DNA of 64,000 bases from an uncultured Bacilli bacterium. Lineage in GTDB: Bacteria; Bacillota_I; Bacilli_A; RF39; UBA660. The stretch covers positions 4,771 through 68,770 of the forward strand of contig CAKPRO010000006.1 of NCBI GenBank assembly GCA_934182615.1, written 5' to 3'. The notes beneath the pieces are model-generated. The model had not been told where the DNA came from, searched no databases, and saw nothing but the letters and a program-made list of their open reading frames with translations. Positions 994-15,998 of the stretch are shown here, in pieces (the stretch's first letter is position 1; each line of letters starts with the position of its first letter). The position numbers were made by a program, and so were the translations under genes.

Positions 994-1581
994 TTATTTA
1001 CTACCCAAATTCAAATATTCTTCTTTCGTTATCTCGTAGCAGTAACAATCTACTTCTTCAGTTAAAATAGTATACTTAACTTTTTTAATTTTATTAGTTC
1101 TATGAAAGCCTAACTTTTCAATCACTTTCCAAGATGCTATGTTATCAGTAGCAACACAAGTTTCTATTTTATCAATTTGTACTTCTTTAAACATATAATC
1201 AAGTACTGCCTTAGCAACCTCACTACCATATCCCATACCATGATAATTAGAATCTAAAAACCAACCAACATCTCTTATATTATCACTATTTTCATTACCA
1301 AATTCATCATGACTTTTTTGGCAACTAGCCTGACCAATACATTTATTTTCTGATTTTAATATTATTGACCATTGAAATACATCTTCATTATTTGCTTTTT
1401 CTAATTTTTTATATTGCCATACCTTTTCTTTTTCCCAATCATAATTAAATTTTCCTACAAGATAATTTTTTGCTACTTTCTTATCACATAAAATACCCCA
1501 AATAACTTTTAAATCTTCTTCTTTAGTAGGTCTTAAAAGTAACCTATCTGTTTCTAACACTTTAGATCCTAAATATTTCAT
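994..1581 (-). CDS. GNAT N-acetyltransferase, RimJ/RimL-like
   Basis: 195 aa ORF. Has LETDRLLLRPTKEEDL at the N-terminus and the acetyl-CoA motif HGMGYGSEVAKAVLDYMF...ASWKVIEKLGF. Confidence 0.8.
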   Translation of the reverse strand: MKYLGSKVLETDRLLLRPTKEEDLKVIWGILCDKKVAKNYLVGKFNYDWEKEKVWQYKKLEKANNEDVFQWSIILKSENKCIGQASCQKSHDEFGNENSDNIRDVGWFLDSNYHGMGYGSEVAKAVLDYMFKEVQIDKIETCVATDNIASWKVIEKLGFHRTNKIKKVKYTILTEEVDCYCYEITKEEYLNLGSK

Positions 1582-1628
1582 TTTTCTTACCTCTTTTCTT
1601 TATTTATTAATTTTTTATTTTGATAGCA

Positions 1629-1990
1629 TTATCTATTATTTTCGGTTACTGTTATCACTTGCATATTACCATTATTAAATACTATATATTCTTTATCTCC
1701 TATTAATTCTATATCATTACTATCTATAAAGATAGTATCTTCTTCAGGTAAATAAATTACTTTTTTTCTATAGAATATTCTTTTAAATAATTTATATTAT
1801 TTTTTGTTTTAATAATATTATCATTATAATGACAAAGTAATGAATATCCAGATAAAACATCAAAACCACTTGTATCTTTTAAACCAATAATACTATTATC
1901 ATCTTCATATTTACAAATATCTATATCTTTACCAAATATAATTGCACCAGCACTTCCACCAAATACAACACCATCATTTATTATCTAATC
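1629..1990 (-). pseudogene. Peptidase S51 (PepE-like) remnant, N-terminally truncated and frameshifted
   Basis: Hand translation gives IINDGVVFGGSAGAIIFGKDIDICKYEDDNSIIGLKDTSGFDVLSGYSLLCHYNDN.., with the GGSAGA nucleophile motif. The frame breaks at an A7 run near 1762-1768. There is no start codon, and the 5' end is overlapped by the stop of the 1985-2770 gene. Confidence 0.6.
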
Positions 1991-2770
1991 ACCAATATAA
2001 AACCTATTCTTATCATTATTTAAAGTAATCTTATCTAAATAGTCAATTCTATCTTTAACAGAAACTCCTCTTAAATTATTCTCAACATCCTCAAATTCAG
2101 TAGTAGTACTATCTCTATTATAAATATATTTATCGGTATCATTATACTCATATTTTTCAATATCTTCATCTAAGAATCTATGACAATCATCATGAATAAA
2201 GAATATACCTTCTTTTATCTTTTTCGCAGGACTTCCACCATATATAGTATTTGAATTATATCTCTTATTAGTTATTAAACTTTTAGCTCCAATAACTGCT
2301 CCCGATCCTACCATAGCATTCTTTAATACCATTATTCCTTGACCAATCCAAACATGATCACCAATAAAAATACTTTTACTTTGATTTATTCTTTTCTTAG
2401 TATTAATATCATATATTATATGTGGATCTGCACTTCTAAAACAACATTCAGGAGCTATCATACAATTTTTACCAATAAACAAATTAGTTTGTTCAGATAT
2501 AACTATCTTAACTCCTTTATTTATCCAAATATTCTTTCCAAAGTAAATAGTGGAATTATTATATAGTTTTATATCTACAGTTATTTTTTCTGATGTTTTA
2601 CATAAATATACTAGTGAATTATCCCCTCTAAATTCTATACTAGAATTAACTAAAGTTATTTCATCATTAATATATAAAACATTATTACTACCTATAAACT
2701 TTACTTTAGAATTATCTAAATTAACATTACCTATTATTTTATTATTATTTTCATCTACTATTTCTTTCAT
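1985..2770 (-). CDS. Hexapeptide-repeat (left-handed beta-helix) acetyltransferase
   Basis: Hexapeptide region FIGDHVWIGQGIMVLKNAMVGSGAVIGAKSLIT. The likely true start is MKEIVDE at 2770, preceded by AAGGAGG. The track ORF start at 2842 reads through the repeat element. Confidence 0.65.
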   Translation of the reverse strand: MKEIVDENNNKIIGNVNLDNSKVKFIGSNNVLYINDEITLVNSSIEFRGDNSLVYLCKTSEKITVDIKLYNNSTIYFGKNIWINKGVKIVISEQTNLFIGKNCMIAPECCFRSADPHIIYDINTKKRINQSKSIFIGDHVWIGQGIMVLKNAMVGSGAVIGAKSLITNKRYNSNTIYGGSPAKKIKEGIFFIHDDCHRFLDEDIEKYEYNDTDKYIYNRDSTTTEFEDVENNLRGVSVKDRIDYLDKITLNNDKNRFYIGD

Positions 2771-2784
2771 GATTTCCTCCTTTT

Positions 2785-2843
2785 CCACTTCAGTCTGTAG
2801 TCTTCCGTGGTATGATAGAGCCTCTATAATAGTCTCTATCATA
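2785..2843 (-). repeat. Twin-hairpin intergenic repeat, copy 2
   Basis: Minus strand reads UAUGAUAGAGACU-auuauag-AGGCUCUAUCAUACC-ACGGAAGACU-aca-GACUGAAGUGG. It begins 5 nt after the upstream stop (2849) and is followed by AAAAGGAGG and the ATG at 2770. Confidence 0.8.
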
Positions 2844-2848
2844 ATATT

Positions 2849-3490
2849 TTATTCCATTACACCATTCTCTATAAAATAATGTTTACCTACAAAATCTATA
2901 TCATTATCTTTTACCCTAATAAAAGATTCATTAGGTAATCCTATTATTCTAGTATATTTACTAACTTCAAATACTTCATCCATATATTCTTTATTATCAA
3001 TATCAAAGTGAGGATATATATTTAAATCAATAAAACCAAGTCCTTGATAATCTACTAATTCATAATTCTTAAAATCATCTTTATATATTACTCTATCTGT
3101 TTGATTCATAGCACCAGCACTAGTGCCAATTGTAATACCATTTCTATCCCTTAATATATTAAATAAATTATATTCTATAATAGATTTCATTTCTAATTCA
3201 GGACTACCACCCATTAAATAAACTATATCTGTTTTTTCTATATATTTATAAACATCTTCTTTAGATACTCTATTATCTATTAAATGTACTTCTTTAAAAT
3301 TAATATCTATATTTTTAAATACATTAATAATTTCTTTAACCTGAGTATCATTTCTTTCATATTCATCAAATAAACTAGCTATAAAAGTAATAGACATATT
3401 ATTCTTTATATCCTCTTTTATATATTTCTTTTGATTATCATTAAACCCTTTATCCCTATCTATTCTACTAAACATATAATTAATTTTCAT
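2849..3490 (-). CDS. Peptidase S51 family (dipeptidase E-like)
   Basis: Motifs YLMGGSPE, GTSAGAM and YPHFD. Likely start is MKINYMF at 3490, after GGAGGT. Confidence 0.7.
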   Translation of the reverse strand: MKINYMFSRIDRDKGFNDNQKKYIKEDIKNNMSITFIASLFDEYERNDTQVKEIINVFKNIDINFKEVHLIDNRVSKEDVYKYIEKTDIVYLMGGSPELEMKSIIEYNLFNILRDRNGITIGTSAGAMNQTDRVIYKDDFKNYELVDYQGLGFIDLNIYPHFDIDNKEYMDEVFEVSKYTRIIGLPNESFIRVKDNDIDFVGKHYFIENGVME

Positions 3491-3552
3491 ACTTACCTCC
3501 ATTTATAATATAATTTTATCATGATATGTCATATAAGTAAATGTTTTATAAT

Positions 3553-4113
3553 TTATTTAAAATAATCATCACGAGTAATAGAATAACTAATTAAATCTAC
3601 TTGTTTTTTAGTAACTTTATCATATACTCTTTTTCTAAGAATACCATCATACTTCATTCCTACTTTTTCTAATACTTTTCCGCTAGCAGAGTTTCCTTCT
3701 ACATAATAAGCATATATAGTTTCCACCCCTACTTCTTCGAAAAAGAACTTTATTATTCTAGTTAAAGCCTCAGTACCATATCCTTTATTCCAAAAGTTTC
3801 TTCCGTAGCAGTGTCCTATTTCTACAGTATTATTATTAACATCAATATCTACTGCTCCAATTGTTCCAATAGGAACCCTTTCTTCTTTTGGTATTACCAT
3901 CCAGTTATAAAAATTATCTTCTTTATAACTATTCTCTAAATAATTAAGAAATTTTATCGTATCTTCTTCTTTTTCATAAGCATCCCATCTTAAATACTTA
4001 GTTACCTCTTTATCATTAGCCCAATTATTAAACATAGCATTAGAATCACTAATACTTGCTTTTCTAAATAGAAGCCTATTTGATTTTAACTCTACTGTTC
4101 CTATATTCTTCAT
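3553..4113 (-). CDS. GNAT N-acetyltransferase, RimJ/RimL-like
   Basis: 186 aa. Has LKSNRLLFRKASISD and NKGYGTEALTRIIKFFFEEVG...ASGKVLEKVGMKYDG. Confidence 0.8.
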   Translation of the reverse strand: MKNIGTVELKSNRLLFRKASISDSNAMFNNWANDKEVTKYLRWDAYEKEEDTIKFLNYLENSYKEDNFYNWMVIPKEERVPIGTIGAVDIDVNNNTVEIGHCYGRNFWNKGYGTEALTRIIKFFFEEVGVETIYAYYVEGNSASGKVLEKVGMKYDGILRKRVYDKVTKKQVDLISYSITRDDYFK

Positions 4114-4114: not shown

Positions 4115-4765
4115 TTAATCTTCTACTTTTCTTTCTTCAATTTTACCATTTTTTACTACAAAATAATTGTTAATATAATAAGTACCACTATCTTTTATTA
4201 CTATACAAGAATCATTAGGTAAACCTATTATTTTATATTTATAAGAACTATCAATTATTTCATTTACTTGCTTTCTATTATTAATATCAAAATGAGGATC
4301 AATAGTTATATCAGTAAAACCTAATCCTTCATAAAAGAATGTCTTATCATAATCATCATCTTTAGAATAATACCCTATCTTACCTAAGTTCATACTACCC
4401 GCAGATATTCCAAGTAATATTTTATCTTTAAATAATTCTTTATAATCTATTCTTTTAATTATATCTAATTGTATTAAAGGATTACCTCCAAATAAATATA
4501 TAATATCTACTTTCTTTATTATATTTATCATATCGTCAACAGAAGCCCTTCCATCTATTAAATAAAATTCTTTAATACTATTAAACATACTTCTTATACC
4601 AATTTTATCACTAGTACCATCTATTAAAGTATCATTCTTACTATAATCATCACTAGCACATATAACAGCCATCCTATTATATCTATCCAATTCTTTATTT
4701 ATAACTTCCTTTATTCTAATATTAAACCCTTTTACTTTATCATAGCCACTAAATAATATTATCAT
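4115..4765 (-). CDS. Peptidase S51 family (dipeptidase E-like)
   Basis: Motifs YLFGGNPL, GISAGSMNLG and IDPHFD. Paralog of 2849-3490. Confidence 0.7.
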   Translation of the reverse strand: MIILFSGYDKVKGFNIRIKEVINKELDRYNRMAVICASDDYSKNDTLIDGTSDKIGIRSMFNSIKEFYLIDGRASVDDMINIIKKVDIIYLFGGNPLIQLDIIKRIDYKELFKDKILLGISAGSMNLGKIGYYSKDDDYDKTFFYEGLGFTDITIDPHFDINNRKQVNEIIDSSYKYKIIGLPNDSCIVIKDSGTYYINNYFVVKNGKIEERKVED

Positions 4766-4773: not shown

Positions 4774-5895
4774 CTACTTTTTCTTACATTTATTTAAAAC
4801 TATTAATGGTATCTTCATCTCATCTTCAGTTAAACCAGCATGAGTTGACTTATGAATATGACCAACATTCCTATATTTAAAATATTTATTACTATAGGCT
4901 AAAGCAAAATAATCTCCTAGTGAATCTCTAAAATATTTATGTTCAGTACCATTACCTAATAACTTACTATTAATAAGTTCTTCTTTAGTCATTAATACAA
5001 AATAATTACTAAAGTATTTATTAAATAGATAAACAAATTCTTCCTCTCTACCATCTTTTATTTTAAAACTACATAGTCTTCCTTCAAAAGACGTATCTCC
5101 AGCAAGAGTATCAAATATATCTTTATAATCTTCTAATATAATAGTATCACAATTAATATGACCATGATCCGCTACTACAATAAGTAATGTATCATCAGAT
5201 ATAGTATTATATAATTCTTCTACTTTTTTATTAATCAACTCAAAATAATCTCTAGTCTCTTTACTATCAGTACCAGTAATATGCATAGTAGTATCTGGTT
5301 CAGGATTATATACATAAATATAATTTTTATCTTTAACATTTAAACTACTTTTAATTTTATTTATCATATCATCAATATCTTCATATTTATTTTCATTAAA
5401 TGAAGCAATTAATTTAGCATAATGTTTTCCATCTTCATTTATTAATTCACAAATATCTTTATATGGAAAATATTTTCTAGCTAGTGATACACTATCAGCA
5501 TCTATATCAGTATCTTTAATTTTATTAGTAAACATTGTTACTATTTTATCCTCTTTTTTAAAATATAAATCCCAAGCAAGCCATCCATGTTCCACTGGTG
5601 TAAGACCAGTAAGCATTGATGTAGTTGAAGCAGTTGTAGTCGCTGGTACTACTGAAGATATTTCTTTTAACATATTTCTATAAAGAAAACTATTTTCTCC
5701 TAATAATTTTTTTATTAATCTTGATCCCATTCCATCAAATAATATAACTACTACATTTTTTGGTTTATATTCTTCTAATATTTTGTCAATATCACTTAAA
5801 GTATTATGATAGACATCAAGTTCAAAATATCTCCTAATACTAGATGCTAAACTAACAATACTATTATCATATTCTGGTAATATAAACTTATCCAT
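4774..5895 (-). CDS. Alkaline phosphatase superfamily protein (type I phosphodiesterase / nucleotide pyrophosphatase-like)
   Basis: Motifs VVILFDGMGSRL, TTASTTSMLTGLTPVEHGW and VVADHGH. Likely start is MDKFILPEY at 5895, after AAGGAAGTGG. The track start at 5949 is a TTG inside the terminator hairpin. Confidence 0.7.
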   Translation of the reverse strand: MDKFILPEYDNSIVSLASSIRRYFELDVYHNTLSDIDKILEEYKPKNVVVILFDGMGSRLIKKLLGENSFLYRNMLKEISSVVPATTTASTTSMLTGLTPVEHGWLAWDLYFKKEDKIVTMFTNKIKDTDIDADSVSLARKYFPYKDICELINEDGKHYAKLIASFNENKYEDIDDMINKIKSSLNVKDKNYIYVYNPEPDTTMHITGTDSKETRDYFELINKKVEELYNTISDDTLLIVVADHGHINCDTIILEDYKDIFDTLAGDTSFEGRLCSFKIKDGREEEFVYLFNKYFSNYFVLMTKEELINSKLLGNGTEHKYFRDSLGDYFALAYSNKYFKYRNVGHIHKSTHAGLTEDEMKIPLIVLNKCKKK

Positions 5896-5932
5896 TTTAT
5901 CCACTTCCTTTATTTTATTAATATCATATATA

Positions 5933-5977
5933 GAAAAAACCGAAGACAACTATTCCATATAAGAATAGTGACTCCGG
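5933..5977 (-). terminator. Intrinsic terminator inside the 5' leader of the phosphatase-family gene (attenuator candidate)
   Basis: Minus strand has CCGGAGUCACUAUUC-uuauaug-GAAUAGUUGUCUUCGG followed by UUUUUU. It lies between the promoter (6048-6076) and the ATG at 5895. Confidence 0.6.
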
Positions 5978-6145: not shown

Positions 6146-6253
6146 TAACATTTACAACCGAGATCATTTATTGCTCGCACCACCCGGAAGCGATTAACAT
6201 TTCACAACTAGGATCATTTATTGCTCGCACCACCTAGAAGCGATTAACATTTA
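6146..6253 (-). repeat. Tandem direct repeat, two units of about 50 nt plus a partial unit
   Basis: Units run 6146-6194 and 6195-6244, with a partial third. Each unit has a 5 bp stem whose two copies differ by compensatory changes (minus strand CUAGG/CCUAG versus CCGGG/CUCGG). The stem encloses an identical 20 nt loop UGGUGCGAGCAAUAAAUGAU. Confidence 0.7.
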
Positions 6254-6293
6254 TATTAAAGTATTCTTCTAAATACTTCTTAAAATATATTTT

Positions 6294-6358
6294 ATCATAG
6301 AGACTACAGGCTCTATGATACCTAATGAAGACTTAAGATTAACTTAAGGCTTCATAGG
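6294..6358 (+). repeat. Twin-hairpin repeat, inverted-orientation variant (copy 3)
   Basis: Plus strand reads AUCAUAGAGACU-aca-GGCUCUAUGAUACC-UAAUGAAGACU-uaagauuaacuuaa-GGCUUCAUAGG. It ends 4 nt from the ABC exporter stop (6362). Confidence 0.7.
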
Positions 6359-6361
6359 CAA

Positions 6362-8092
6362 TTATGAATTTAAAGATTCAGTCTCATAAAGATTTCTATA
6401 TATCTTACAACTATTTAATAATTCCTTATGTGTGCCCGTTGCTATTACCTTACCACCATCAACAACATGAATAATATCAGCATCCATAATCGTAGATAAT
6501 CTATGAGCCACTATTACAATAGTATGATCATTAACTAAATTATCAATAGTCTTCTTAATATAATCTTGAGAATTATTATCTAAAGCTGAAGTAGCTTCAT
6601 CAAATAAAATCACTTCACTACCCTTAGATAAAGTTCTAGCAATAGATAGTCTTTGTTTTTGACCACCAGATAAATTAATACCAGACTCTCCTAATACAGT
6701 ATCATACCCTTTAGGTAAAGACATAATATAATCATCTAAATAAGCCATCTTAGAATATTCTCTTATCTTCTTAAGAGATATATTCTTATTAATTAATTTA
6801 AAATTTTCTTTAATAGTTCTATTAAAAACAAAAGGTTCCTGTCTAATTATTGATATATGTTTTCTTAATTCATCTTCACTTAAGTCTTTAATATTAATAC
6901 CATCTAACAATATCTCCCCACTAGTAGTATCAAATATTCTAGTAATTAAGTTAAATAAAGTACTCTTACCCTGACCAGAAGCTCCTACTACAGCAATCTT
7001 CTTATTAGGTTCAATCTTTAAACTAAAATTATTTAATATATTACCCTCATCAGGATAATTAAAATTAACATCTTTAAATTCAATTACCCCTTTAACATTA
7101 ACTAACTTCTTATTGCCAAACTCTTCATCTTTATATAATCTATTCTCTAATATATCATTTACTCTTGATATAGATACACTAACCTTCTGATATGTCTGAG
7201 TTAAGTCATTAATATTCTCTATTAACCAAGTAAACCTATATACATAATAAGTCATAGCAATAAAAAAAGTTAAACTAATCATCTTATAATATAATAATAT
7301 AACACAAGTAGCAAATACTCCGCATTCTAATATAGATTTTAATAATCTAGTCTTTATATTAAAACTCTTCTGAATATCAATCTCTTTACTAGATTTATTA
7401 TATATATCCTTAATAATACTAGTCATATCACTAATTAAATTATTTTTAATACCTAATGTTTTAATTTCTCTTATACCTCTAATAGACTCCGTAGTTAAAG
7501 AAGTAAACTTATCTTGCTCTTTTCTTCTCTCTTTATGTATATCTTTAAGTAATGGATTATATTTCTTTAATATTAAGAATAATATTGAAACTATAAGTAG
7601 TATTTCTACTCCTACTATCCAAGAATTGATAAAAATATAGATTATGACAATTATTGATGCCACTAGTGATGATATCATATTAAGTAATCTACCAAAAGCA
7701 AAACTTAAAGTATCAGCATCACTTGTTATTCTGTTTATTATTTCTCCTGATGACATCTTTTCATAAGCAACTGAGGGTAAACATAATGCTTTCTTATAAG
7801 TATAAAATCCTAACTTTCTAGTTAACTTACTCTCTTCTTTATATAATATAGAATTAGCATAATGTAGTACTATTCCATCCATTGTTATTTCTAATACAAA
7901 ATATATTCCTAGGAATATTAAGGCATTCTTTATATCAAGTATAGTAATAAACTCTACTACTTTACCATTTAGGTAACCAGTAAAGACCTCACATATTCCA
8001 GATATAAATATTATGATACTTGCAAATATAAGTTTACTTAAATCTTCTTTAACTAATTTTAATAGAGGTTTAAATTCTTTTATACTCTTCAT
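6362..8092 (-). CDS. ABC exporter, fused permease-ATPase (MsbA/multidrug type)
   Basis: 576 aa with an N-terminal 6-TM region. Walker A GASGQGKST, signature LSGGQKQRLSIAR, Walker B ILFDEATSALD. Confidence 0.9.
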   Translation of the reverse strand: MKSIKEFKPLLKLVKEDLSKLIFASIIIFISGICEVFTGYLNGKVVEFITILDIKNALIFLGIYFVLEITMDGIVLHYANSILYKEESKLTRKLGFYTYKKALCLPSVAYEKMSSGEIINRITSDADTLSFAFGRLLNMISSLVASIIVIIYIFINSWIVGVEILLIVSILFLILKKYNPLLKDIHKERRKEQDKFTSLTTESIRGIREIKTLGIKNNLISDMTSIIKDIYNKSSKEIDIQKSFNIKTRLLKSILECGVFATCVILLYYKMISLTFFIAMTYYVYRFTWLIENINDLTQTYQKVSVSISRVNDILENRLYKDEEFGNKKLVNVKGVIEFKDVNFNYPDEGNILNNFSLKIEPNKKIAVVGASGQGKSTLFNLITRIFDTTSGEILLDGINIKDLSEDELRKHISIIRQEPFVFNRTIKENFKLINKNISLKKIREYSKMAYLDDYIMSLPKGYDTVLGESGINLSGGQKQRLSIARTLSKGSEVILFDEATSALDNNSQDYIKKTIDNLVNDHTIVIVAHRLSTIMDADIIHVVDGGKVIATGTHKELLNSCKIYRNLYETESLNS

Positions 8093-8104: not shown

Positions 8105-8138
8105 AAATAAAAGAACTACTTATTTATAAAGTAGTTCC
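8105..8138 (-). terminator. Intrinsic terminator between the leader ORF and the ABC exporter (attenuator candidate)
   Basis: Minus strand has GGAACUACUU-uauaaau-AAGUAGUUC followed by UUUUAUUU, then GGAGGUG and the ATG at 8092. Confidence 0.6.
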
Positions 8139-8413: not shown

Positions 8414-9270
8414 ACATTTTTTAGTTTATCTAATAATTCTTCTAATATATTATTATCTACTATCTTAGTAATAGCAAAACACTTTTTACCTAAATCTTTA
8501 AATGAAGCACCAGAATGATATAACACTTTATTATCTATTATAACAAACCTATCATGAAATATATTAGTATTTATTATTTCTATATTACTATATTGTTTTT
8601 CATACTTATCTTTAGAAATATTATCTATATTTTCTGTATATATTTTTACTTTAACATTAATATTTCTAATAATATCAAATAATTTTTTACCAGCATAATT
8701 ATCTATTATAATTATTTCTTTCTTTGCTTTAGATAATATATCTATAAGTAATGAATATGCATCATATATCTGTCCTTCATAAAAAATATGATTATTACTT
8801 TCTTTTGAAGTTAATTTATCTAGTATTAAATTAATTTTACTATCGTGTTCTAATACTAATTTGTTAATATATTTTTGTTCTATCAGTGAAGTATTTATTA
8901 TCTTTTTCATTACTACGAATGCATCCATTATTGCAATTGTTATCTTCGTTGCTTCTTTACTTTTTAAGATTGTAGCAAGCATATATACACCTTGCTCGGT
9001 AAAAACTCTGGGATTTTTATACTTACCTCCATGTTTTTCTATTTTTTGGTCGAAAATTTCGACCAAAAGATTATCACTTTCGTTATCGGAAAGTTTAAAG
9101 CAATATCTTTCGGGAAACTTTTCTATATTATTTTTAACTGCTTCATTTATTCTTTTTGTTTCTACATTATAGAGTTTAGCCAAATCAGAATCTAACATTA
9201 CTTTTTTACCTCTAATTTCATATATCATATTTTCTATCTTTATATTATTGCTTACCATTATATTGTTCAT
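8362..9270 (-). CDS. ORF6N (KilA-N-like) domain protein
   Basis: N-terminus IENMIYEIRGKKVMLDSDLAKLYNVETKRINEAVKNNIEKFPERYCFKL is typical of the ORF6N domain. Likely start is MNNIMVSNN at 9270. The C-terminal ~17 aa are encoded by the repeat element. Confidence 0.7.
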   Translation of the reverse strand: MNNIMVSNNIKIENMIYEIRGKKVMLDSDLAKLYNVETKRINEAVKNNIEKFPERYCFKLSDNESDNLLVEIFDQKIEKHGGKYKNPRVFTEQGVYMLATILKSKEATKITIAIMDAFVVMKKIINTSLIEQKYINKLVLEHDSKINLILDKLTSKESNNHIFYEGQIYDAYSLLIDILSKAKKEIIIIDNYAGKKLFDIIRNINVKVKIYTENIDNISKDKYEKQYSNIEIINTNIFHDRFVIIDNKVLYHSGASFKDLGKKCFAITKIVDNNILEELLDKLKNVMMKIKVGFIIPRKTIG

Positions 9271-9370
9271 TATATCATCCTTTCTTTGATCTCTAAAAAG
9301 ATATATCTCTTTTATCATTGTCTTATCGTTTATGATAATATAAATACATAATGATGTCAATATAAAAATA

Positions 9371-9877
9371 CTATTTGTTAATTAACTTCTTTACATAAAT
9401 ATTCCTTGGACCCCTTTTAAAACTTCTACTACCAGTTAAAATAAAACCATCTTTAATTAAATTATTAATAGAATATATATTATCTGGATGAATAGTCCCA
9501 ATAGCAATCTTATAACCTTTACTTTTAACATATTCATCTAGATATTTTAACATTTGATACTGAAGATTATTACCAACATACTTAGGATTAACAAACATTG
9601 GTCCATAATCAATAACTTCTTTATAATCTAAATCTAAATCAAATTTTATCATATCTTCTTCATTAGAAGGAATACTCATCATAGAACATACAAAGTCATT
9701 ATTTAAATAATATAACCATATTTTGGTTCCATTATCAAGTAATTCTTTTAAATCTTCCTTAGTAAAGTCTCCTAACCACTCAGGATACTGCATATTACTT
9801 TTAGTATATTCACGATATTCTATATATTTATCTAAATTAATATTATTATCTACACACTTTAAATCTTCTAACTTCAT
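9371..9877 (-). CDS. GNAT-fold acetyltransferase (divergent)
   Basis: 168 aa. C-terminal half has VGNNLQYQMLKYLDEYVKSKGYKIAIGTIHPDNIYSINNLIKDGF. Confidence 0.55.
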   Translation of the reverse strand: MKLEDLKCVDNNINLDKYIEYREYTKSNMQYPEWLGDFTKEDLKELLDNGTKIWLYYLNNDFVCSMMSIPSNEEDMIKFDLDLDYKEVIDYGPMFVNPKYVGNNLQYQMLKYLDEYVKSKGYKIAIGTIHPDNIYSINNLIKDGFILTGSRSFKRGPRNIYVKKLINK

Positions 9878-9886: not shown

Positions 9887-10372
9887 TCAATTTATTTTCT
9901 TAATATCAATTAAACCTCTAGTATGATAACCATGTTTTTCGTAGAAGTTAATTCCCATTTTATTGTAGGCAAATACTTCAATAGAAATATATTCACATCC
10001 TATACTTTTAAAATACTTTTCTATCCTATTTATAAGTAAAGTACCAATACCACTACTTCTTACTTTCTTAGATACTACTAACTCTGTTACTTCACCACAT
10101 TTAGGACATTTATAATCTAAATAATCATATTCATCATAACACCTTAAACATCCCATTATTAAACCTACTACTTCATCATTATCTATTGCTAGATAACATT
10201 TGCCATTATTATTTTTTATTTCTTCTAAATCTAACATAGCCATCTTATCACGATATTCAGGATGTAACTGATCTAGATTATCTTCATCAATACTAAGAAT
10301 ATATTCTTCTAGTTCTACTAGTAAATCTTTTACATCTTCTAAATATCTATCTTCATATTCAATTATTTTCAT
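9887..10372 (-). CDS. GNAT N-acetyltransferase with an inserted Cys4-like segment
   Basis: Motif VRSSGIGTLLINRIEKYFKSIGCEYISIEVFAYNKMGINFYEKHGY. Insert is CLRCYDEYDYLDYKCPKCG. Confidence 0.75.
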   Translation of the reverse strand: MKIIEYEDRYLEDVKDLLVELEEYILSIDEDNLDQLHPEYRDKMAMLDLEEIKNNNGKCYLAIDNDEVVGLIMGCLRCYDEYDYLDYKCPKCGEVTELVVSKKVRSSGIGTLLINRIEKYFKSIGCEYISIEVFAYNKMGINFYEKHGYHTRGLIDIKKIN

Positions 10373-10385
10373 TATACCTCCTTTT

Positions 10386-10442
10386 CCACTTCAGCCAGTA
10401 GTCTTCCGTGGTATGATAAAGCCTATTCTAGTCTCTATCATA
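10386..10442 (-). repeat. Twin-hairpin intergenic repeat, copy 5
   Basis: Minus strand reads UAUGAUAGAGACU-agaau-AGGCUUUAUCAUACC-ACGGAAGACU-acu-GGCUGAAGUGG. The upstream stop TGA (10438-10440) lies inside the conserved UAUGA. It is followed by AAAAGGAGG and the ATG at 10372. Confidence 0.85.
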
Positions 10443-10932
10443 AAATCTTATTTATTATTTTTATACTTATCTTTTTATCATTAACATAATAATGAATATC
10501 ATTATCATTAATATTCTTCAAATATATACTTCTTCCTATTGGACTATTTAAAGATACCTCTTTAATTTTAACATTATTATCTATCATATATTTACCAGTT
10601 AATTTAATAGTATATTCTTCGATATCATCTATATCATATATAACTTTTATTTTAAGAATATCTCCTACATCTATTATATCATCAAAATTACTTTTTTTAT
10701 CTACTATTTTTAAATATTTTTCATCCTCTAACATTTTATTTATTCTTGAAGCAATCTTTCTACTTTCCCTCATTGTATCTTCAAAAGCAAAATTATCATG
10801 CCATCCATCTCCTACTGCATCAGCATAGGATTCACTTCCTATGCTGGCAATAGATAAACTTATATCTTTTAATCTATTTAATTCTTCATAATACTGATTA
10901 AATCCATCAGTATCTACTAATACATCTTTCAT
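10438..10932 (-). CDS. GreA/GreB-family-like protein
   Basis: The C-terminal segment EVSLNSPIGRSIYLKNINDND resembles the GreA C-terminal domain (IS..SPLG.ALLGK). The N-terminal DGWHDNFAFEDTMRE is coiled-coil-like. Confidence 0.5.
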   Translation of the reverse strand: MKDVLVDTDGFNQYYEELNRLKDISLSIASIGSESYADAVGDGWHDNFAFEDTMRESRKIASRINKMLEDEKYLKIVDKKSNFDDIIDVGDILKIKVIYDIDDIEEYTIKLTGKYMIDNNVKIKEVSLNSPIGRSIYLKNINDNDIHYYVNDKKISIKIINKIL

Positions 10933-10941
10933 AAACACCTC

Positions 10942-11721
10942 CTATGAACCTGTACTACTATAATGTTTTAAACCTATTTTAAAAGATAGAAAACATGGTA
11001 TTAAATATACTACTATTAATAATGGTGATAATAAATATAATGTATTATTAGATTTTCCTAATAAATAAAGTAAAGGATAATAATTAACTGAAGCATATGG
11101 AATAATAAAAGTAAATATAAATATAAAACCTTTTCTAAATATTCCTATTGGATACTGAGCCATTTGTTTACCACCATCAGTTAATAAATTTCTTACTTCT
11201 AAGCCATGAATAGTAATAAAACAGTATGAAGCCATTAACAAGAATATTCCAAAGAATAATATTATTGAAGATAGAAACATTGCTATTATTAATAATATAT
11301 TTATAATATTCCATTCTATATTTAAATGAATTATAGCAATAAAGAATATTATTAACGATTGAATAATTCTAGCTACTTTTACAAAATCCATTTCACTACA
11401 TATTACTTGATATAATACCCCTCTAGGTCTTACTAATAGTCTATCTAAAGAACCATCAATAATAAACTTTTCAAACTTATCTACTCCTCTAAAGAATGTT
11501 TCATTAAAAGCAAAGCCAAAATGAATAATAGAAAAACATAATAGTACTTCATATAAAGTAAAACCTTTAATATTATCAAATCTTTGAAATAAAGCTACTG
11601 TCATAAAATAATAAGTAAAAAATACTCCTATTTGGCTAATAAAAGTCAAGATAAATGATAGACGATATTCTAACTGTGATTTTAATTTAAGTTTCATTGA
11701 TTCTATATATAACTTAACCAC
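10942..11721 (-). CDS. ABC-2 type transporter permease
   Basis: 259 aa polytopic membrane protein. It overlaps the next permease gene and sits in an operon with the ATPase. Confidence 0.65.
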   Translation of the reverse strand: MVKLYIESMKLKLKSQLEYRLSFILTFISQIGVFFTYYFMTVALFQRFDNIKGFTLYEVLLCFSIIHFGFAFNETFFRGVDKFEKFIIDGSLDRLLVRPRGVLYQVICSEMDFVKVARIIQSLIIFFIAIIHLNIEWNIINILLIIAMFLSSIILFFGIFLLMASYCFITIHGLEVRNLLTDGGKQMAQYPIGIFRKGFIFIFTFIIPYASVNYYPLLYLLGKSNNTLYLLSPLLIVVYLIPCFLSFKIGLKHYSSTGS

Positions 11722-12514
11722 CTTGTATCACAGCCTTTCTAAGTGATACTCTTGATATTAAGTATCCTAATGATATTGTAATAATTATCCAAATAATAGA
11801 ACCAATAATAAGGATATATCCTTCTTCTAATGGTATACTATTAGAATATATTCTAAAGGGAAAGTCTCCAATAAACCTAAAAGGAAGAAATTCCGCTATA
11901 TGTTTTAACCATGTTGGAAAAAATGGTATCGGAACCGTTCCACCCATAAATATATCTGCAATTACACTATAAGCAGTCATAGACCCCTTTTCATCTAAAG
12001 TAAACATTGTTAAAATATGCATAAATAAATTTAAAGCTGTAACTAAGAATAATCCTAATACTAATGCTACTATAAATATTATAAAATTATTTATCGAATA
12101 AGGACCAGATAAATGAAATGGTTCTGGTAATGATATAGCAAGAATTATTAAAGGAACAAATCTAAGTAAAACTGCTACTAACCTTTTAGCTAGCATCTTA
12201 ACATACCATTTAAAATAAAAATCTTGAGGTCTTACTAATTCATAAGCTAAATTACCATTTTTAATCATATCAAGTAATTCGTTTTCTCTATCAAAGGGAT
12301 ATATTAGGGCAAAAAATGATTGCTGAAGCCATAAGTAATTAACAAGTTCTTGCCAGTTCATTGGTACATTACCACCACTTTCGTAGAAGGCTAAATATAC
12401 CATAATAAATATTAAAGCAAAGAATATTTGAGTACATATACCCGCTATTGCTTCCATTCGATATTGAAGATTAGTTATAAATCTTAATCTAAAATAACTT
12501 AAATATGATTTCAT
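11714..12514 (-). CDS. ABC-2 type transporter permease
   Basis: 266 aa polytopic membrane protein. It overlaps the stop of the ATPase gene. Confidence 0.65.
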   Translation of the reverse strand: MKSYLSYFRLRFITNLQYRMEAIAGICTQIFFALIFIMVYLAFYESGGNVPMNWQELVNYLWLQQSFFALIYPFDRENELLDMIKNGNLAYELVRPQDFYFKWYVKMLAKRLVAVLLRFVPLIILAISLPEPFHLSGPYSINNFIIFIVALVLGLFLVTALNLFMHILTMFTLDEKGSMTAYSVIADIFMGGTVPIPFFPTWLKHIAEFLPFRFIGDFPFRIYSNSIPLEEGYILIIGSIIWIIITISLGYLISRVSLRKAVIQGG

Positions 12515-13494
12515 AATTCATAGTCCTCATATAATTTAAGTATTACATCATCAATACTTTCATTATCTATTTCAATATCTTCAATATTATATTTAGTAGT
12601 AAGTTTACTTAAGAAATTAGATATACTTATTATATTAGAATCAATTATAAAATTATAACTATCTTCCTTCTTACATTTCTTTATAACACCTTTTACTTTA
12701 ATATTATCAATTTTATCCTTAGTAAATATCTTAATATTTTTATAACTACCATATTTAACTTTTAATGTTTTAATATTTCCATCATATAGTATCTTTCCAT
12801 TACCAATTAAGATAATTCTCTTAGCCAGTGCTTCAATATCATTCATATCATGAGTAGTAAGAATTACTGTTACTTTATTTTCTTTATTTATCTTTTTAAT
12901 AAAGTCTCTTACTATCTTTTTGGATATAGCATCTAATCCTATTGTAGGTTCATCTAAGAATAATATTTCTGGTTTATGTAGAAGAGATGATGCTATTTCA
13001 CACCTCATTCTCTCTCCTAAAGAAAGCGTTCTAACCGGTTTTTTTATTATTTCTTCAATACCTAAAAGTTCTACTAAATATTTCTTTGTCTTTTGATATT
13101 CATTATTATCTATTTTATAGATATCTCTTAACAAGTCAAAAGTGTCTTCCGCTGGGATATCAAAAGCAAGCTGACTTCTTTGACCAAAGACTACTCCTAT
13201 CTTAGATACATATTTTTTTCTATCTTTAATAGGATCTAAATTATTTATTTTAATGCTTCCACTAGTAGGAAGAAGTATTCCTGAAAGCATCTTAATTGTG
13301 GTACTCTTTCCGGCACCATTTGGACCAATATAACCAATTACTTCTCCTTTCTTTATTTCAAAAGATACATTTTTTACTGCTTCTACTATTTTGTATTCTC
13401 TTTTGAAAAATGATTTTAAAGCAGCTTTTAGTCCACTATTTCTTTTGGCTACTTTAAAAGTTTTTGTTATGTTATCAACTTTGATGAATGACAT
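12511..13494 (-). CDS. ABC transporter ATP-binding protein
   Basis: Walker A GPNGAGKSTT, signature LSLGERMRCEIASS, Walker B ILFLDEPTIGLD. Likely start is MSFIKVDNITK at 13494. Confidence 0.9.
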   Translation of the reverse strand: MSFIKVDNITKTFKVAKRNSGLKAALKSFFKREYKIVEAVKNVSFEIKKGEVIGYIGPNGAGKSTTIKMLSGILLPTSGSIKINNLDPIKDRKKYVSKIGVVFGQRSQLAFDIPAEDTFDLLRDIYKIDNNEYQKTKKYLVELLGIEEIIKKPVRTLSLGERMRCEIASSLLHKPEILFLDEPTIGLDAISKKIVRDFIKKINKENKVTVILTTHDMNDIEALAKRIILIGNGKILYDGNIKTLKVKYGSYKNIKIFTKDKIDNIKVKGVIKKCKKEDSYNFIIDSNIISISNFLSKLTTKYNIEDIEIDNESIDDVILKLYEDYEL

Positions 13495-13521
13495 TTTAAT
13501 ATCACATCCTTTCTGACAACG

Positions 13522-13550
13522 CAAAAAAGCCACATATTTCAAATATGTAG
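13522..13550 (-). terminator. Terminator-like hairpin in the leader of the ABC-2 operon (attenuator candidate)
   Basis: Minus strand has CUACAUAUUU-g-AAAUAUGUGG followed by CUUUUUUG. It lies between the promoter at 13601-13629 and the ATG at 13494. Confidence 0.5.
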
Positions 13551-13600
13551 TTTCATCGTGCAATTAAATATATGTTTTTTTCTTCGCAAATGTCATAATA

Positions 13601-13629: not shown

Positions 13630-13639
13630 TGGTTTTATA

Positions 13640-14887
13640 TTAATTTTTACTTAATAGTTTTTCTAATGGTTTAAACTCAGTAGATTCTTCTAATTTTTCT
13701 TCATAATATTTACCATCTTGGTAGAAGCCTCTCAAAGCATATGCTTCTTTAATATTATGAGCCTTTACTTCACTAGTAATTATTCTATATTCATTATCTA
13801 CTATCTCAATACAAGAACAATTACTTAACATTATACCTACTTTATCTTTATTTTTTAATTCTTCTTTAGTAGATTCATATCTTCCATTTTCATCAGTATG
13901 AGGGGTAATGTAAGCATCAATAAAATTTAGACAATCTACACTACTAAAAGTTACATCATTATCACTAGTTACCGAGTCTGAATTACAAGAATTAAACCAG
14001 CACACTGCTCCAGCAGATACTCCACATAATACTTTACCATCATTATATGCATCAAGTAATAATTTATCAAATCCTGTTTTCTTCCATAAATTAATCATCT
14101 CTAAAGTATCACCGCCACCTTCATAAATAATATCAGCCCATGCTATTTTTTCCTTTACTACTTCCATATCATCTAGTTCAGTACTTTTTAAATTTCTACA
14201 CCTACAGCCAAACATATCACCATATATTTTTTTCATCGTTTCAAAATAACCCTCTTCGATAGCATTATTAAATGGTTGTGCATGAACCACAAATAAATAA
14301 TTAGGGTTTTCTTTACCTGTTAATCTTATTATTTCCTTATCCATAGGTTCAGTTTCATATTCACGATATTTACCATTACCTAAATATCTACCATTTTCTT
14401 TCCAAACATCAGTTAATTGTTTTCTATTTTGAATAGCTTTCATTCTCTTTGCTATCCAGTTTTCATCATAGCCTTTTGACCTATATAAATCTATAGATCT
14501 TTGCATAGCAATTGATGGATCAAATACCTCATCAATTCTCTCACTACCTAACTTAGCTAACCATTGCTTTATAGGCTCAGCATTCTTACTAGGAATAGAT
14601 TCTATTATTCTAAACATTCCTTCAATATCAGTAACATCCGTCATACGATATTTACCATCAGTAGCCTTAAGTTTCAACTGTCCGATTTTTTCGGACACTT
14701 CACTTCCTTCCGAAGTTAATTGTTTCTTTAAGTCACTCCAGTATTTTCTGGGTCTAGCACTTCCAGTTAATACTTCAATAATATCAATAATACTAACATA
14801 ATATTTCTCACTTTCTTTATTCCAAACAGTTCTAACTTTCTTATCATTAAATATTTTGTTAATCAAATATAATTTGTCTTTTTCCAT
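13640..14887 (-). CDS. Fusion protein: Bro-N/DinD-like N-terminal domain plus peptidase S51 C-terminal domain
   Basis: N-terminus KKVRTVWNKESEKYYVSIIDIIEVLTGSARPRKYWSDLKKQL...AEPIKQWLAKLGSERIDE is DinD/Bro-N-like. C-terminus has GGGDTLEM, GVSAGAVCW and ITPHTD (S51 motifs). Likely start is MEKDKLY at 14887. Confidence 0.7.
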   Translation of the reverse strand: MEKDKLYLINKIFNDKKVRTVWNKESEKYYVSIIDIIEVLTGSARPRKYWSDLKKQLTSEGSEVSEKIGQLKLKATDGKYRMTDVTDIEGMFRIIESIPSKNAEPIKQWLAKLGSERIDEVFDPSIAMQRSIDLYRSKGYDENWIAKRMKAIQNRKQLTDVWKENGRYLGNGKYREYETEPMDKEIIRLTGKENPNYLFVVHAQPFNNAIEEGYFETMKKIYGDMFGCRCRNLKSTELDDMEVVKEKIAWADIIYEGGGDTLEMINLWKKTGFDKLLLDAYNDGKVLCGVSAGAVCWFNSCNSDSVTSDNDVTFSSVDCLNFIDAYITPHTDENGRYESTKEELKNKDKVGIMLSNCSCIEIVDNEYRIITSEVKAHNIKEAYALRGFYQDGKYYEEKLEESTEFKPLEKLLSKN

Positions 14888-14995
14888 ATAACCCTCCTCT
14901 TTTCTTACATTCCCAATATAACACATATAAAATATCTAAGTCAATGAATTTTAATACATTTCTTGGTAATATTTTTACCAAAAAGAAAAAGTACT

Positions 14996-15508
14996 CTATG
15001 AGTACTTATTTCCTAAAATAAATTCATATACACATTCAGTTATATCAATACCATGTATATTAGAATGCTCTAACTCTACTACTTTACCACCTATCTTTTG
15101 ATAAAATTCATTAGCAGTATTCTCTTTTAGACATCTAATAATAACCCTTTTATATCCATCTTTTTTAAATATGTCAAAACAATATTTAATAAGTTTAGTT
15201 CCATAACCCTTTTTCTGATTATTATCTTCTATATAGATAGAATATATTTCTTTATAGTCCTTATACTTATCTCCTCTTGCGTCTCCGTAGCAGATAAATG
15301 CCTTAACCATATTATCTTCTTCTAGAAGAGCATAATTAGAACTACCTTTCCTTATAGCATTCTTAATATTTTCTACTCTAGTATTATATTCACTTTCTTG
15401 TTTATCAAATACTTCTTTTGGGAAAACATTACTATAAGTACTTCGCCAAGAATTTAAATGTATTCTAACTATTCTTGCAGCATCACTTGTATTAGCTTCT
15501 CTAATCAT
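14996..15508 (-). CDS. GNAT N-acetyltransferase
   Basis: 170 aa. Motif NQKKGYGTKLIKYCFDIFKKDGYKRVIIRCLKENTANEFYQKIGG. Confidence 0.8.
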   Translation of the reverse strand: MIREANTSDAARIVRIHLNSWRSTYSNVFPKEVFDKQESEYNTRVENIKNAIRKGSSNYALLEEDNMVKAFICYGDARGDKYKDYKEIYSIYIEDNNQKKGYGTKLIKYCFDIFKKDGYKRVIIRCLKENTANEFYQKIGGKVVELEHSNIHGIDITECVYEFILGNKYS

Positions 15509-15998
15509 CTAAATTACCATTACTAAAATATATTTCTAATCTATTATATTTACCAGTATACTTTTCTATATAATTTTTATTAGTATAATCATTTACTACC
15601 ATCTTCCAAAAAGACTCTGCCACTTTAGAATTAGGTACAGCTTTAATAGTCCAATTACCTTTATACATATCAAATACTTTAATTGCTACTTCTTTACCTA
15701 TTTTATTTCTTTTATAATTATTTAAAACAAATATTTCACTTATTTCATAATTATTATTTCCATTATCATCTATAAGTACAAAGCCTAATATATCTTTATC
15801 ACTCTTAATAAAATAAGCATAATTATCTATAAAATATTTATCTAAATCATATTCATACTGACATATATCAGAATTAAAAGTAATAGGAAAATATAAACTT
15901 AAATCATGTAAATATAATTGTAGTAATCTTTCTAATTTATTTCTATCTTCTAATCTAACTTTTTCTAATTTAATATTATTATTCACTATATCCTCCAT
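15501..15998 (-). CDS. GNAT-fold acetyltransferase (divergent)
   Basis: 165 aa. Motif YKRNKIGKEVAIKVFDMYKGNWTIKAVPNSKVAESFWKMV. Confidence 0.55.
   Translation of the reverse strand: MEDIVNNNIKLEKVRLEDRNKLERLLQLYLHDLSLYFPITFNSDICQYEYDLDKYFIDNYAYFIKSDKDILGFVLIDDNGNNNYEISEIFVLNNYKRNKIGKEVAIKVFDMYKGNWTIKAVPNSKVAESFWKMVVNDYTNKNYIEKYTGKYNRLEIYFSNGNLDD

Follow-up and report, generated by a model that had tools for sequence, protein, structure and literature searches.

Gene content of the locus

The window, a stretch of 64,000 nt, comes from the genome of an uncultured gut Bacilli bacterium, which is small (1.22 Mb), host-associated and has a G+C content of 25%. Positions 994-15998 make up 1.2% of this genome, yet they hold six of its ten GNAT matches (five firm, one divergent) and all three of its S51 matches. 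As the initial annotation had stated, a hexapeptide acyltransferase, an ABC exporter of the multidrug (MsbA) type and an ABC-2 transporter are also present, each with Pfam matches, together with a C-terminal S51 remnant. All listed genes lie on the minus strand.

630-764, minus: tyrS2 stub, the initial 45 codons left from a second tyrosyl-tRNA synthetase gene that has been deleted (similarity to the TyrRS of congener G014)
762-950, minus: T-box leader, now orphan (Rfam RF00230, 84.5 bits against a gathering score of 93; E 2e-17)
994-1581, minus: GNATb, Acetyltransf_3, RimJ/RimL class (PF13302, E 2e-28)
1629-1984, minus: S51 remnant, C-terminal half in two frames (stop-to-stop frames 1757-1984 and 1629-1796)
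1985-2770, minus: hexapeptide-repeat acyltransferase, left-handed beta-helix (PF00132, E 5e-7; ORF 1985-2842)
2772-2856, minus: twin-hairpin copy (CM R1, 84.7 bits)
2849-3502, minus: S51b serine peptidase (PF03575, E 2e-19)
3553-4113, minus: GNATa, Acetyltransf_3, RimJ/RimL class, between two S51 genes (PF13302, E 1e-32)
4115-4765, minus: S51a serine peptidase (PF03575, E 9e-14)
4774-5949, minus: type I phosphodiesterase/nucleotide pyrophosphatase (PF01663, E 5e-20)
6151-6250, minus: orphan CptI-like type III antitoxin array, 2 x 50 nt (match to G000:C8:7890-7982)
6280-6371, plus: twin-hairpin copy, opposite orientation (CM R1, 53 bits)
6362-8092, minus: MsbA/SmdA-type ABC exporter, fused TMD-NBD (PF00664 and PF00005)
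8112-8325, minus: promoter, leader ORF and terminator hairpin ahead of the exporter (read from the sequence)
8344-8426, minus: twin-hairpin copy (CM R1, 89.4 bits), overlapping the last codons of the ORF6N gene
8362-9360, minus: ORF6N-domain protein (PF10543, E 5e-31; PADLOC candidate PDC-S05, PDLC04869, E 6e-92)
9371-9877, minus: probable divergent sixth GNAT (PF00583, E 0.009; blastp E 0.004 to its neighbour)
9887-10372, minus: GNAT, Acetyltransf_1 (PF00583, E 2e-18)
10373-10455, minus: twin-hairpin copy (CM R1, 85.8 bits), directly 5' of the ribosome-binding site of the GNAT gene 9887-10372
10438-10938, minus: GreA-like small protein (NCBIfam GreA, E 1e-10, under cut-off)
10942-13563, minus: ABC-2 transporter, two permeases and a DrrA-like ATPase (PF06182, PF12698, PF00005)
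13640-14926, minus: chimeric Bro-N and S51 ORF (PF02498 and PF03575; PADLOC candidate PDC-S13, PDLC04920, E 2e-68)
14996-15998, minus: two overlapping GNAT genes, Acetyltransf_1 (14996-15508 and 15501-15998; PF00583)
16000-16082, minus: twin-hairpin copy (CM R1, 83.9 bits)

These 15 kb had been described as a possible detoxification arsenal. They are not one coherent arsenal: promoter and terminator sites divide them into about six separate transcription units, accompanied by defence and toxin-antitoxin debris. The phosphodiesterase gene opens a phosphodiesterase-S51-GNAT-S51 unit with a gap of 8 nt to S51a, and one promoter-like site (6076-6048) was found for the phosphodiesterase-S51-GNAT unit. 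Another such site (13629-13601) belongs to the ABC-2 system, and a terminator (15007-14989) lies at the end of the GNAT pair 14996-15998. The exporter leader contains a 31-codon ORF (8168-8263) and a terminator hairpin (8138-8112); judged from this arrangement, it is probably an attenuator.

Peptidases and acetyltransferases

No enzyme of 994-15998 reached the cut-off of an NCBIfam curated family model, including the GNAT and S51 paralogs for which HMM annotation had been suggested. S51a and S51b share 35% identity, and S51b matches the S51 half of a fusion protein from congeners at 54% identity. An AlphaFold model of S51b (pLDDT 96) superimposes in Foldseek on all solved S51 structures with TM scores of 0.65-0.72. 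The S51 proteins are nevertheless far from every one of these structures, with E values of 0.017 or worse by sequence and 14-22% identity by fold. The catalytic Ser and His do not vary across 98 family members. Where PepE has Glu192 and MccG has Asp196 in the alignment, two thirds of the family carry a seemingly invariant Asn, and the acid follows at the next residue.

Three intact S51 genes and one remnant had been claimed. S51a, S51b and the remnant are real; the remnant begins at the GGSAGA serine motif, carries a frameshift and matches the fused S51 domain with a blastp E of 0.001. The third gene (13640-14926) is a deletion chimera rather than a native gene, in which a 2.26-kb deletion has fused Bro-N in frame with an S51 gene. 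In congener G014 the two halves are still separated by Bro-N, a PNP_UDP_1 phosphorylase and another Bro-N, and the other members of the 90% cluster of this ORF are mostly 263 aa long among the members listed.

The count of six GNATs, two of them RimJ/RimL-like, was correct. GNATa and GNATb (28% identity) belong to Acetyltransf_3, and the weak sixth member (9371-9877) has top clusters in the ESM Atlas that are all GNAT (0.98-0.99); its comparison with the Acetyltransf_3 profile by hhalign was negative. The hexapeptide transferase (1985-2770) scored well under the cut-offs of the WbbJ, maltose O-acetyltransferase, CatB and Vat models. Its true start is probably 2770, directly preceded by a ribosome-binding site, which in turn comes after the twin hairpin.

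Pairing and fusion of S51 and GNAT

The conserved pairing of S51 with an Acetyltransf_3 GNAT is the main new result. The start of GNATa (4113) abuts the stop of S51a (4115), a junction described as a one-base overlap, and the second pair, S51b and GNATb, is split by the hexapeptide transferase and the S51 remnant. A repeated pairing had been noted initially, and the adjacency is indeed kept in other genomes, even as one polypeptide: in congeners G012, G024 and G009 both domains form a single protein of 420-424 aa. Such fusions are abundant in metagenomes, where one variant occurs on 652 contigs and divergent representatives were found at 49%, 30% and 25% identity. Because the two domains form one polypeptide in congeners and many gut Bacilli, they most likely share a substrate class.

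Of 79 species loci that carry an S51 ORF from this subfamily, the GNAT is fused in 18 and adjacent in 11, against a baseline of 9/384 for genes two or more positions from S51; 46 of the 79 have no GNAT nearby. The sampled species are related, and these counts overstate independence. On the S51 tree the fused state requires at least three independent changes. Next to members of the subfamily, across 80 species, APH kinases, further GNATs, methyltransferases, NUDIX proteins and nucleotide pyrophosphatases (Phosphodiest) are overrepresented, gene classes that fit a detoxification or house-cleaning theme. In G014 an APH kinase takes the place of GNATa between the same two S51 genes. S51 genes are present in 11 of 24 congeners, pseudogenes and remnants occur, and some species have tandem arrays of 4-5 copies.

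Possible function of the S51-GNAT module

S51 enzymes of the MccG type hydrolyse processed microcin C and give resistance, standalone MccG homologues protect against McC, and MccE2-type GNATs acetylate the amino group of processed microcin C (PMC9239234). Since MccG cleaves and MccE2 acetylates the same compound, inactivation by both routes is plausible for the module. The link to microcin C, raised in the initial annotation, is favoured because the GNAT-S51 adjacency is conserved. By analogy, we prefer the tentative reading that the S51-GNAT module is a dual inactivator of amino-acid-linked toxic molecules such as processed microcin C. The compounds targeted would contain an Asp-type amino acid whose alpha-amino group is free and which an amide bond joins to a nucleotide or another warhead, as in processed peptide-nucleotide antibiotics of the microcin C type. 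In the manner of MccG, the S51 domain would hydrolyse this aminoacyl amide bond; like MccE2, the GNAT would place an acetyl group on the alpha-amine. The nucleotide pyrophosphatase, which is co-transcribed, and the exporters nearby may provide additional disposal routes. This comparison suggests both the substrate and the physiological role.

The island S51s share the Pfam/MEROPS family and the Ser/His motifs with MccG from Nocardia vaccinii and M. abscessus and the B. subtilis homologue (PMC9239234). Like MccG, they may hydrolyse an Asp-nucleotide carboxamide bond. Most MccG homologues are standalone and outside any mcc cluster, and so are the island S51s; a search of the genome for mcc-type producer genes found none. 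The triad acid is D at the aligned position in MccG, whereas the S51s here have N-[D/E]. Pairing or fusion with a GNAT is described only for the latter and is not mentioned in PMC9239234. Within S51, E. coli PepE and two basal MccG-clade proteins give no protection against McC (PMC9239234).

GNATa has PF13302 in common with RimL and the C-terminal domain of MccE2/MccE (PDB 3R95, 1S7K), and a corresponding N-acetylation of the free alpha-amino group of an aminoacyl compound appears possible. MccE is itself a two-domain fusion, like S51::GNAT. The proposed defence by modification and cleavage is supported as regards the conserved pairing and the MccG/MccE2 precedent (PMC9239234), but not as regards an MccE-type GNAT: the profile similarity is moderate (E 3.9e-10 for MccE, 4e-8 for RimL), 25 PDB entries outrank both, and 3FBU, YdaF, RimJ, PA3944 and SpeG stand nearer to GNATa. 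Two inactivating activities against one drug class are likewise combined in one polypeptide in AAC(6')-Ie/APH(2'')-Ia, a logic that is echoed by the exchange of GNAT for APH in G014 and may also apply to S51::GNAT. The latter, however, is a hydrolase plus acetyltransferase and has no aminoglycoside link; its substrate is suggested by analogy.

A variable and partly decayed island

The region is a variable, partly decayed accessory island whose content differs within the genus. Its genes are interspersed with the twin hairpin, which had been associated with these enzymes. This element is a genus-specific dispersed repeat of 69 copies and not specific to them, nor is it a riboswitch. Seven of the ten copies in the window lie in its first 21 kb, where about 1.2 would be expected from 69 copies per 1.22 Mb. 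On the minus strand, the copy at 6280-6371 reads as the terminator of the exporter (terminator-like site 6320-6293).

A recombination-permissive, repeat-bounded site at which dispensable genes without a common function pile up and decay would explain this density and the six or so separate units. It would also account for the mosaic gene content of congeners with gene-level indels, one of which ends exactly at a repeat copy: the GNAT pair 14996-15998 is missing from G014, with the breakpoint at the twin hairpin at 16000. The deletion chimera, the S51 remnant, the orphan T-box and the orphan antitoxin point in the same direction. Behind the tandem pair matching this antitoxin array (G000:C8:7890-7982) come a terminator and then a CptN homologue of 166 aa (PDB 4RMO, E 1e-21), whereas the toxin gene of the island array is deleted and the syntenic place in G014 has a frameshifted toxin. 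Only the S51-GNAT link would then be meaningful, and the hexapeptide transferase, the transporters and the remaining GNATs would be unrelated passengers. We regard this account as possible but rather improbable, as it leaves unexplained both the gathering of six of ten GNATs and the same enzyme classes beside the S51 subfamily in distant species. It is compatible with dual inactivation by the module.

The type members of S51, PepE aspartyl dipeptidase and cyanophycinase CphB, share the fold and the Ser/His motifs with the island S51s, and the model of S51b matches all solved S51 structures about equally. The S51s could hence be ordinary aspartyl dipeptidases that allow a peptide-dependent gut bacterium with a small, reduced genome to use Asp-X dipeptides, while the GNAT would modify a polyamine or the N-terminus of a peptide or protein for unrelated reasons, or else the released product. 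GNATa matches SpeG polyamine acetyltransferases and RimJ well, and PepE of B. subtilis cleaves Asp-pNA, its natural substrate being unknown (PMC9239234). Such a nutritional or housekeeping role is nonetheless unlikely. The island genes are accessory, not core, and the presence in fewer than half of the congeners, the pseudogenisation and the tandem copies do not suit it; nor do the repeated fusion to a GNAT and a neighbourhood in which APH, GNAT, methyltransferase and NUDIX genes predominate, not peptidases or peptide transporters.

A phage-defence island whose S51, GNAT and transferase genes would be undescribed anti-phage effectors that modify, for instance, aminoacyl-tRNA or nucleotides during infection is very improbable. 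The two PADLOC candidates, the CptIN-type remnant and the variable presence among congeners would suit it, but no PADLOC model matches S51, either Acetyltransf_3 GNAT, the hexapeptide transferase or the phosphodiesterase. In the loci examined, neither an integrase nor other phage genes nor any known defence effector adjoin the S51::GNAT fusions, and a search of 72,556 plasmids gave no full-length match to the fusion query.

Auxiliary aminoacyl-tRNA synthetase genes are also found among the neighbours of the S51 subfamily across species. The tyrS2 stub is 89% identical to the N-terminus of an intact 413-aa TyrRS at the syntenic place in G014, and the housekeeping tyrS lies elsewhere (G000:C1:44290). 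We read the specifier of the orphan T-box as UAC (Tyr). In G014 the T-box precedes tyrS2, and a T-box-controlled second TyrRS adjoins the S51 module.

Gene content of the island

The region 994-15998 had been described in the initial annotation as a possible detoxification arsenal; all genes between 994 and 17951 lie on the minus strand. This interpretation is partly supported by the present analysis. A module of S51 peptidases and GNAT acetyltransferases is real, conserved and fusable, whereas outside this module the 15 kb are a patchwork.

Features of the island (window coordinates, strand)
994-1581 (-), GNAT of family Acetyltransf_3, GNATb (Pfam PF13302, E 2e-28)
1629-1984 (-), C-terminal remnant of an S51 domain, frameshifted
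1985-2842 (-), hexapeptide transferase; start probably 2770, which is preceded by a ribosome-binding site after a copy of the twin-hairpin repeat
2849-3502 (-), S51 domain, S51b (Pfam PF03575)
3553-4113 (-), GNAT of family Acetyltransf_3, GNATa (Pfam PF13302, E 1e-32)
4115-4765 (-), S51 domain, S51a (Pfam PF03575)
6362-8092 (-), MsbA-type exporter (Pfam)
9371-9877 (-), sixth GNAT, on weaker evidence than the other five
9887-10372 (-), GNAT of family Acetyltransf_1 (Pfam)
10942-13563 (-), ABC-2 system (Pfam)
13640-14926 (-), third S51 domain, chimeric (Pfam PF03575)
14996-15508 (-), GNAT of family Acetyltransf_1 (Pfam)
15501-15998 (-), GNAT of family Acetyltransf_1 (Pfam)

Of the six GNATs originally counted, two of them as RimJ/RimL-like, five were recovered by Pfam and two belong to Acetyltransf_3. 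The sixth (9371-9877) is weakly supported and gave no match to the Acetyltransf_3 profile with hhalign. The hexapeptide transferase, the ABC exporter and the ABC-2 transporter were each confirmed by Pfam. All three S51 domains exceed the PF03575 cut-off of 23.9 bits (S51b 70.4, S51a 52.0 and 13640-14926 125.6), and the remnant was found as well. The third domain, however, is not an intact gene but one half of a deletion chimera. The genome comprises 1.22 Mb on 26 contigs and is 92.6% complete; the window (contig C6:4771-68770) has a G+C content of ~25% and a strong strand bias, and close relatives originate from human, goat and rabbit gut. The island makes up 1.2% of the genome, yet it contains six of ten GNAT matches and all three S51 matches found genome-wide. 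Hence, this enrichment is not a matter of chance.

No model of the curated NCBIfam collection reached its cut-off for any of the listed island proteins, so that specific enzyme names would be guesses. The hexapeptide transferase scored at best 36-44 bits against the Vat/CatB xenobiotic acetyltransferase equivalogs (cut-offs 300-475), and its top NCBIfam match was WbbJ-like (61.7 bits, cut-off 243). Next to the island lies a hybrid histidine kinase (16149-17951).

Pairing and fusion of S51 and GNAT domains

In the direction of transcription the gene order is a nucleotide pyrophosphatase (PDE, 4774-5949), S51a, GNATa, S51b, a twin hairpin, the hexapeptide transferase, the S51 remnant and GNATb. 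PDE and S51a are separated by 8 nt, S51a and GNATa overlap, and a strong promoter-like site is located upstream (6076-6048). Among the 24 congeneric genomes, 11 yielded a match to S51b. For G012, G024 and G009 this match lies within an open frame of 420-424 aa that consists of an N-terminal S51 and a C-terminal Acetyltransf_3 domain (Pfam, E 1e-26 to 1e-28 for the GNAT domains). Metagenomes contain this fusion frequently: a single variant, annotated by JGI as 'RimJ/RimL family protein N-acetyltransferase/peptidase E', is present on 652 contigs, and when the representatives at 50% identity were searched exhaustively, more fusions emerged at 49%, 30% and 25% identity. On 72,556 plasmids no full-length match to the fusion was found.

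For a wider survey, 80 species loci were scanned with purpose-built HMMs, and an S51 ORF was detected in 79. It is fused to a GNAT in 18 of the 79 loci, and in 11 more an Acetyltransf_3 gene is directly adjacent on the same strand, compared with a background of 9 in 384 genes at least two positions away; the surveyed species are related and these counts are not independent. GNAT-S51 adjacency, whose absence from other genomes would have counted against the initial annotation, is thus conserved. A fast maximum-likelihood phylogeny built from the S51 domains (IQ-TREE) places the fused forms in several clades with good support, among which unfused forms are interspersed. At least three changes of state are forced by well-supported branches, and parsimony yields seven. 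This repeated fusion or fission argues strongly, despite the non-independent counts, for cooperation of the two enzymes. Even if the substrate is set aside, we regard the fusion as strong evidence that both activities cooperate.

Some loci from uncultured Bacilli MAGs (L063, L064) carry tandem arrays of four to five S51 paralogues, some on very long branches, which indicates amplification of the subfamily. Other S51 loci come from records that name Muribaculaceae, Paludibacteraceae or Bacteroides helcogenes in the title (L016, L024, L026, L029, L040, L048, L049, L058, L062 and L083). Their S51 sequences fall within those of Bacilli MAGs or are up to ~89% identical to them, and the records are probably mis-binned or mislabelled MAG contigs rather than cases of gene transfer.

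Genes next to the S51 subfamily

Pfam families were tallied over 144 genes flanking the S51 subfamily. Most frequent among those noted are APH kinases and other GNATs (nine each), followed by SAM methyltransferases (7), class I LysRS (6), NUDIX (6), nucleotide pyrophosphatases (5) and TyrRS/TrpRS (2). In the congener G014 an APH-family kinase of 347 aa takes the place of GNATa between S51a and S51b (L122, G014:C37:6500-7900), a like-for-like swap of the modifying enzyme. S51b is followed by an APH and a histidine phosphatase in G010, and in G012 an HD phosphohydrolase and a CYTH protein reside beside the fusion. The recurring theme is that of group-transfer enzymes together with nucleotide or phosphate hydrolases, and it fits inactivation of small molecules better than peptide nutrition.

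Active site of the S51 subfamily

The Ser of the GxSAG motif and the His of the PH motif are invariant in 98 aligned members including all three copies of the window, and align to Ser120 and His157 of PepE. The third triad residue is an acid in the reference enzymes, Glu192 in PepE and, aligned by eye, Asp196 in MccG. This column is occupied by Asn in 65, Asp in 25 and Glu in 8 of the 98 members; in 66 an Asp or Glu comes next. At these two positions S51b has Asn-Glu and S51a Asn-Asp, and the chimeric copy has Asn-Cys, without an acid at either. The AlphaFold model of S51b (pLDDT 96.1) found S51 structures as its top 18 Foldseek matches in the PDB (7UQV, 7FFP, 3EN0, 1FY2, 6A4R, 6A4T, 3L4E). 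None is close, with TM scores of 0.65-0.72 and identities of 14-22% to every solved S51 structure.

Microcin C precedent and proposed function

MccG-type S51 peptidases and MccE/RimL-type GNATs are known as distinct, alternative means of immunity to peptide-nucleotide antibiotics. Pairing of S51 and GNAT would unite these two mechanisms. The initial annotation had speculatively linked both families to toxins resembling microcin C (McC), and for each half this link has an experimental precedent. MccG, an S51 enzyme from a Nocardia mcc cluster, hydrolyses the carboxamide bond of processed McC and protects E. coli (Yagmurov et al. 2022, PMC9239234). [quoted passage not shown] That article speaks neither of GNATs nor of a fusion or of adjacent genes (PMC9239234).

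On the acetyltransferase side, MccE and RimL were not borne out as the nearest characterised relatives. A profile of 12 S51-associated GNATs was searched against the PDB and matched 3FBU (1.6e-27), 1NSL (4e-20), 3IGR (7e-17), PA3944 (1e-14) and SpeG (~1e-14), with MccE (3.9e-10) and RimL (4.4e-8) at lower ranks. YdaF and RimJ also outrank both.

Self-immunity of a producer was rejected, since the genome lacks an MccB-type gene; its sole ThiF match, at C3:72524 on a different contig, is an open frame of 228 aa. Whatever part the module plays would then be in defence against foreign compounds. We propose that the S51 domain would cleave an Asp-type aminoacyl-linked toxin and that the GNAT would acetylate the same class of compound. 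Such a dual inactivation, with a putative substrate, is the best current explanation, but a tentative one that falls somewhat short of an even chance. McC-like compounds specifically are a less probable, candidate target. With similarly low probability, the fused and split forms represent an undescribed bifunctional immunity enzyme, which would cleave and acetylate aminoacyl-nucleotide (McC-like) or aminoacyl-nucleoside antibiotics and would be widespread and repeatedly re-formed in gut Bacilli with reduced genomes.

If this holds true, Trojan-horse inhibitors of aminoacyl-tRNA synthetases (aaRS) would exert major selection in the gut. In the literature searched nothing was found on S51-GNAT fusions, and the recurrent pairing and fusion of both folds in uncultured gut bacteria is new relative to it. 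Confirmation of the substrate would reveal what a 'hypothetical' protein that is very common in gut metagenomes does, and would make a natural bifunctional enzyme available to structural work. It would also widen the resistome against aaRS-targeting Trojan-horse antibiotics, which is relevant to the proposed use of McC in animals.

Variability and decay of the island

The congener G015 is colinear with the island at 89-94% identity; G014, G010, G004 and G012 are mosaics. The GNATs at 14996-15998 are absent from G014, and the breakpoint coincides precisely with the twin-hairpin copy at 16000. The third S51 copy (13640-14926) is a 428-aa ORF in which a Bro-N and an S51 domain are joined in frame. 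In G014 (L120, G014:C3:5600-8950) the two halves are 2.26 kb apart, and the segment in between encodes the remainder of Bro-N, a nucleoside phosphorylase (PNP_UDP_1) and a further Bro-N protein. The proteins listed for the 90% cluster of the chimera mostly have 263 aa. A meaningful regulatory Bro-N::S51 fusion is thereby ruled out in favour of a deletion chimera. The Bro-N half (14400-14926) matches the PADLOC candidate single-gene defence family PDC-S13 (E 2e-68), and the ORF6N protein (8362-9360) matches the corresponding candidate family PDC-S05 (E 6e-92). For the ORF6N as well as the Bro-N gene, congeners contain multiple paralogous matches at the DNA level.

An orphan T-box (762-950), whose specifier was read as Tyr, lies next to the first 45 codons of a second TyrRS (630-764), all that is left of this gene in the window. 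In G014 the T-box precedes an intact second TyrRS (L121:929-2170), located beside the GNAT and sharing only 30% identity with the housekeeping TyrRS. Auxiliary aaRS copies classically confer resistance to aaRS inhibitors.

A tandem repeat of 2 x 50 nt (6151-6250) has its counterpart in a pair of repeats on contig C8. The pair belongs to an intact system (G000:C8:7890-8604, L123), with a promoter-like sequence upstream of it and, downstream, a terminator followed by a homologue of the CptN toxin (PDB 4RMO, E 1e-21). By its match to this intact locus, the repeat is an orphan type III antitoxin array of the CptI type, which rules out a tandem riboswitch for the PDE operon. At the syntenic place in G014 the CptN toxin is kept but frameshifted (L124), and in the window the toxin gene is deleted. 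The CptN family has >2,600 unnamed relatives and is without a Pfam or PADLOC model.

Between 8112 and 8325, ahead of the ribosome-binding site of the ABC exporter, a promoter, a leader ORF of 31 codons (8168-8263) and an intrinsic-terminator hairpin were identified. From this layout we infer a probable ribosome-mediated attenuator of the exporter. It resembles that of antibiotic-induced resistance genes, e.g. bmrBCD-type exporters.

The twin-hairpin repeat

Several gene borders of the island carry a repeat of ~60 nt that folds into two hairpins. Both stems covary: across 24 copies, pairing is kept in 96.5% of cells, with double changes at 12 of 18 pairs. Each apex displays a conserved GAC...GGC motif.

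Copies of the twin hairpin in the window
351-446
2772-2856
8344-8426
10373-10455
16000-16082
20673-20752
25865-25946
6280-6371 (+)
49035-49129 (+)
57217-57297 (+)

No Rfam family matched the repeat, short inputs included. A covariance model detected 69 copies in this genome and 1-70 in 23 of 24 congeners, but none in 16 genomes of other genera of the class. The genes downstream of the copies are unrelated (SMC, deformylase, RecU, AMP-binding enzymes, GNATs), and some copies lack a downstream gene or are oppositely oriented. Consequently, while copies do sit between island genes as first noted, they are not specific to them. Integron attC sites were dismissed, as the copies are scattered over many contigs and not arrayed, and so was a RAYT-mobilised REP, given that the genome has no Y1 transposase. 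A riboswitch uniting the genes under one ligand was ruled out by the missing Rfam match, the mixed downstream genes and the copy number. The twin hairpin is a genus-specific dispersed REP/MITE-like repeat and not a regulator of island genes.

Seven of the ten copies lie within the first 21 kb of the window, where ~1.2 would be expected, a ~6-fold enrichment in the variable island. Together with the copy at the indel boundary, this suggests that the region tolerates insertions or that the repeat has a role in rearrangements. Two AMP-binding (acyl/aryl-CoA ligase-like) genes, at 18843-20600 in the window and at G000:C4:40690-42528, are each preceded by a twin hairpin.
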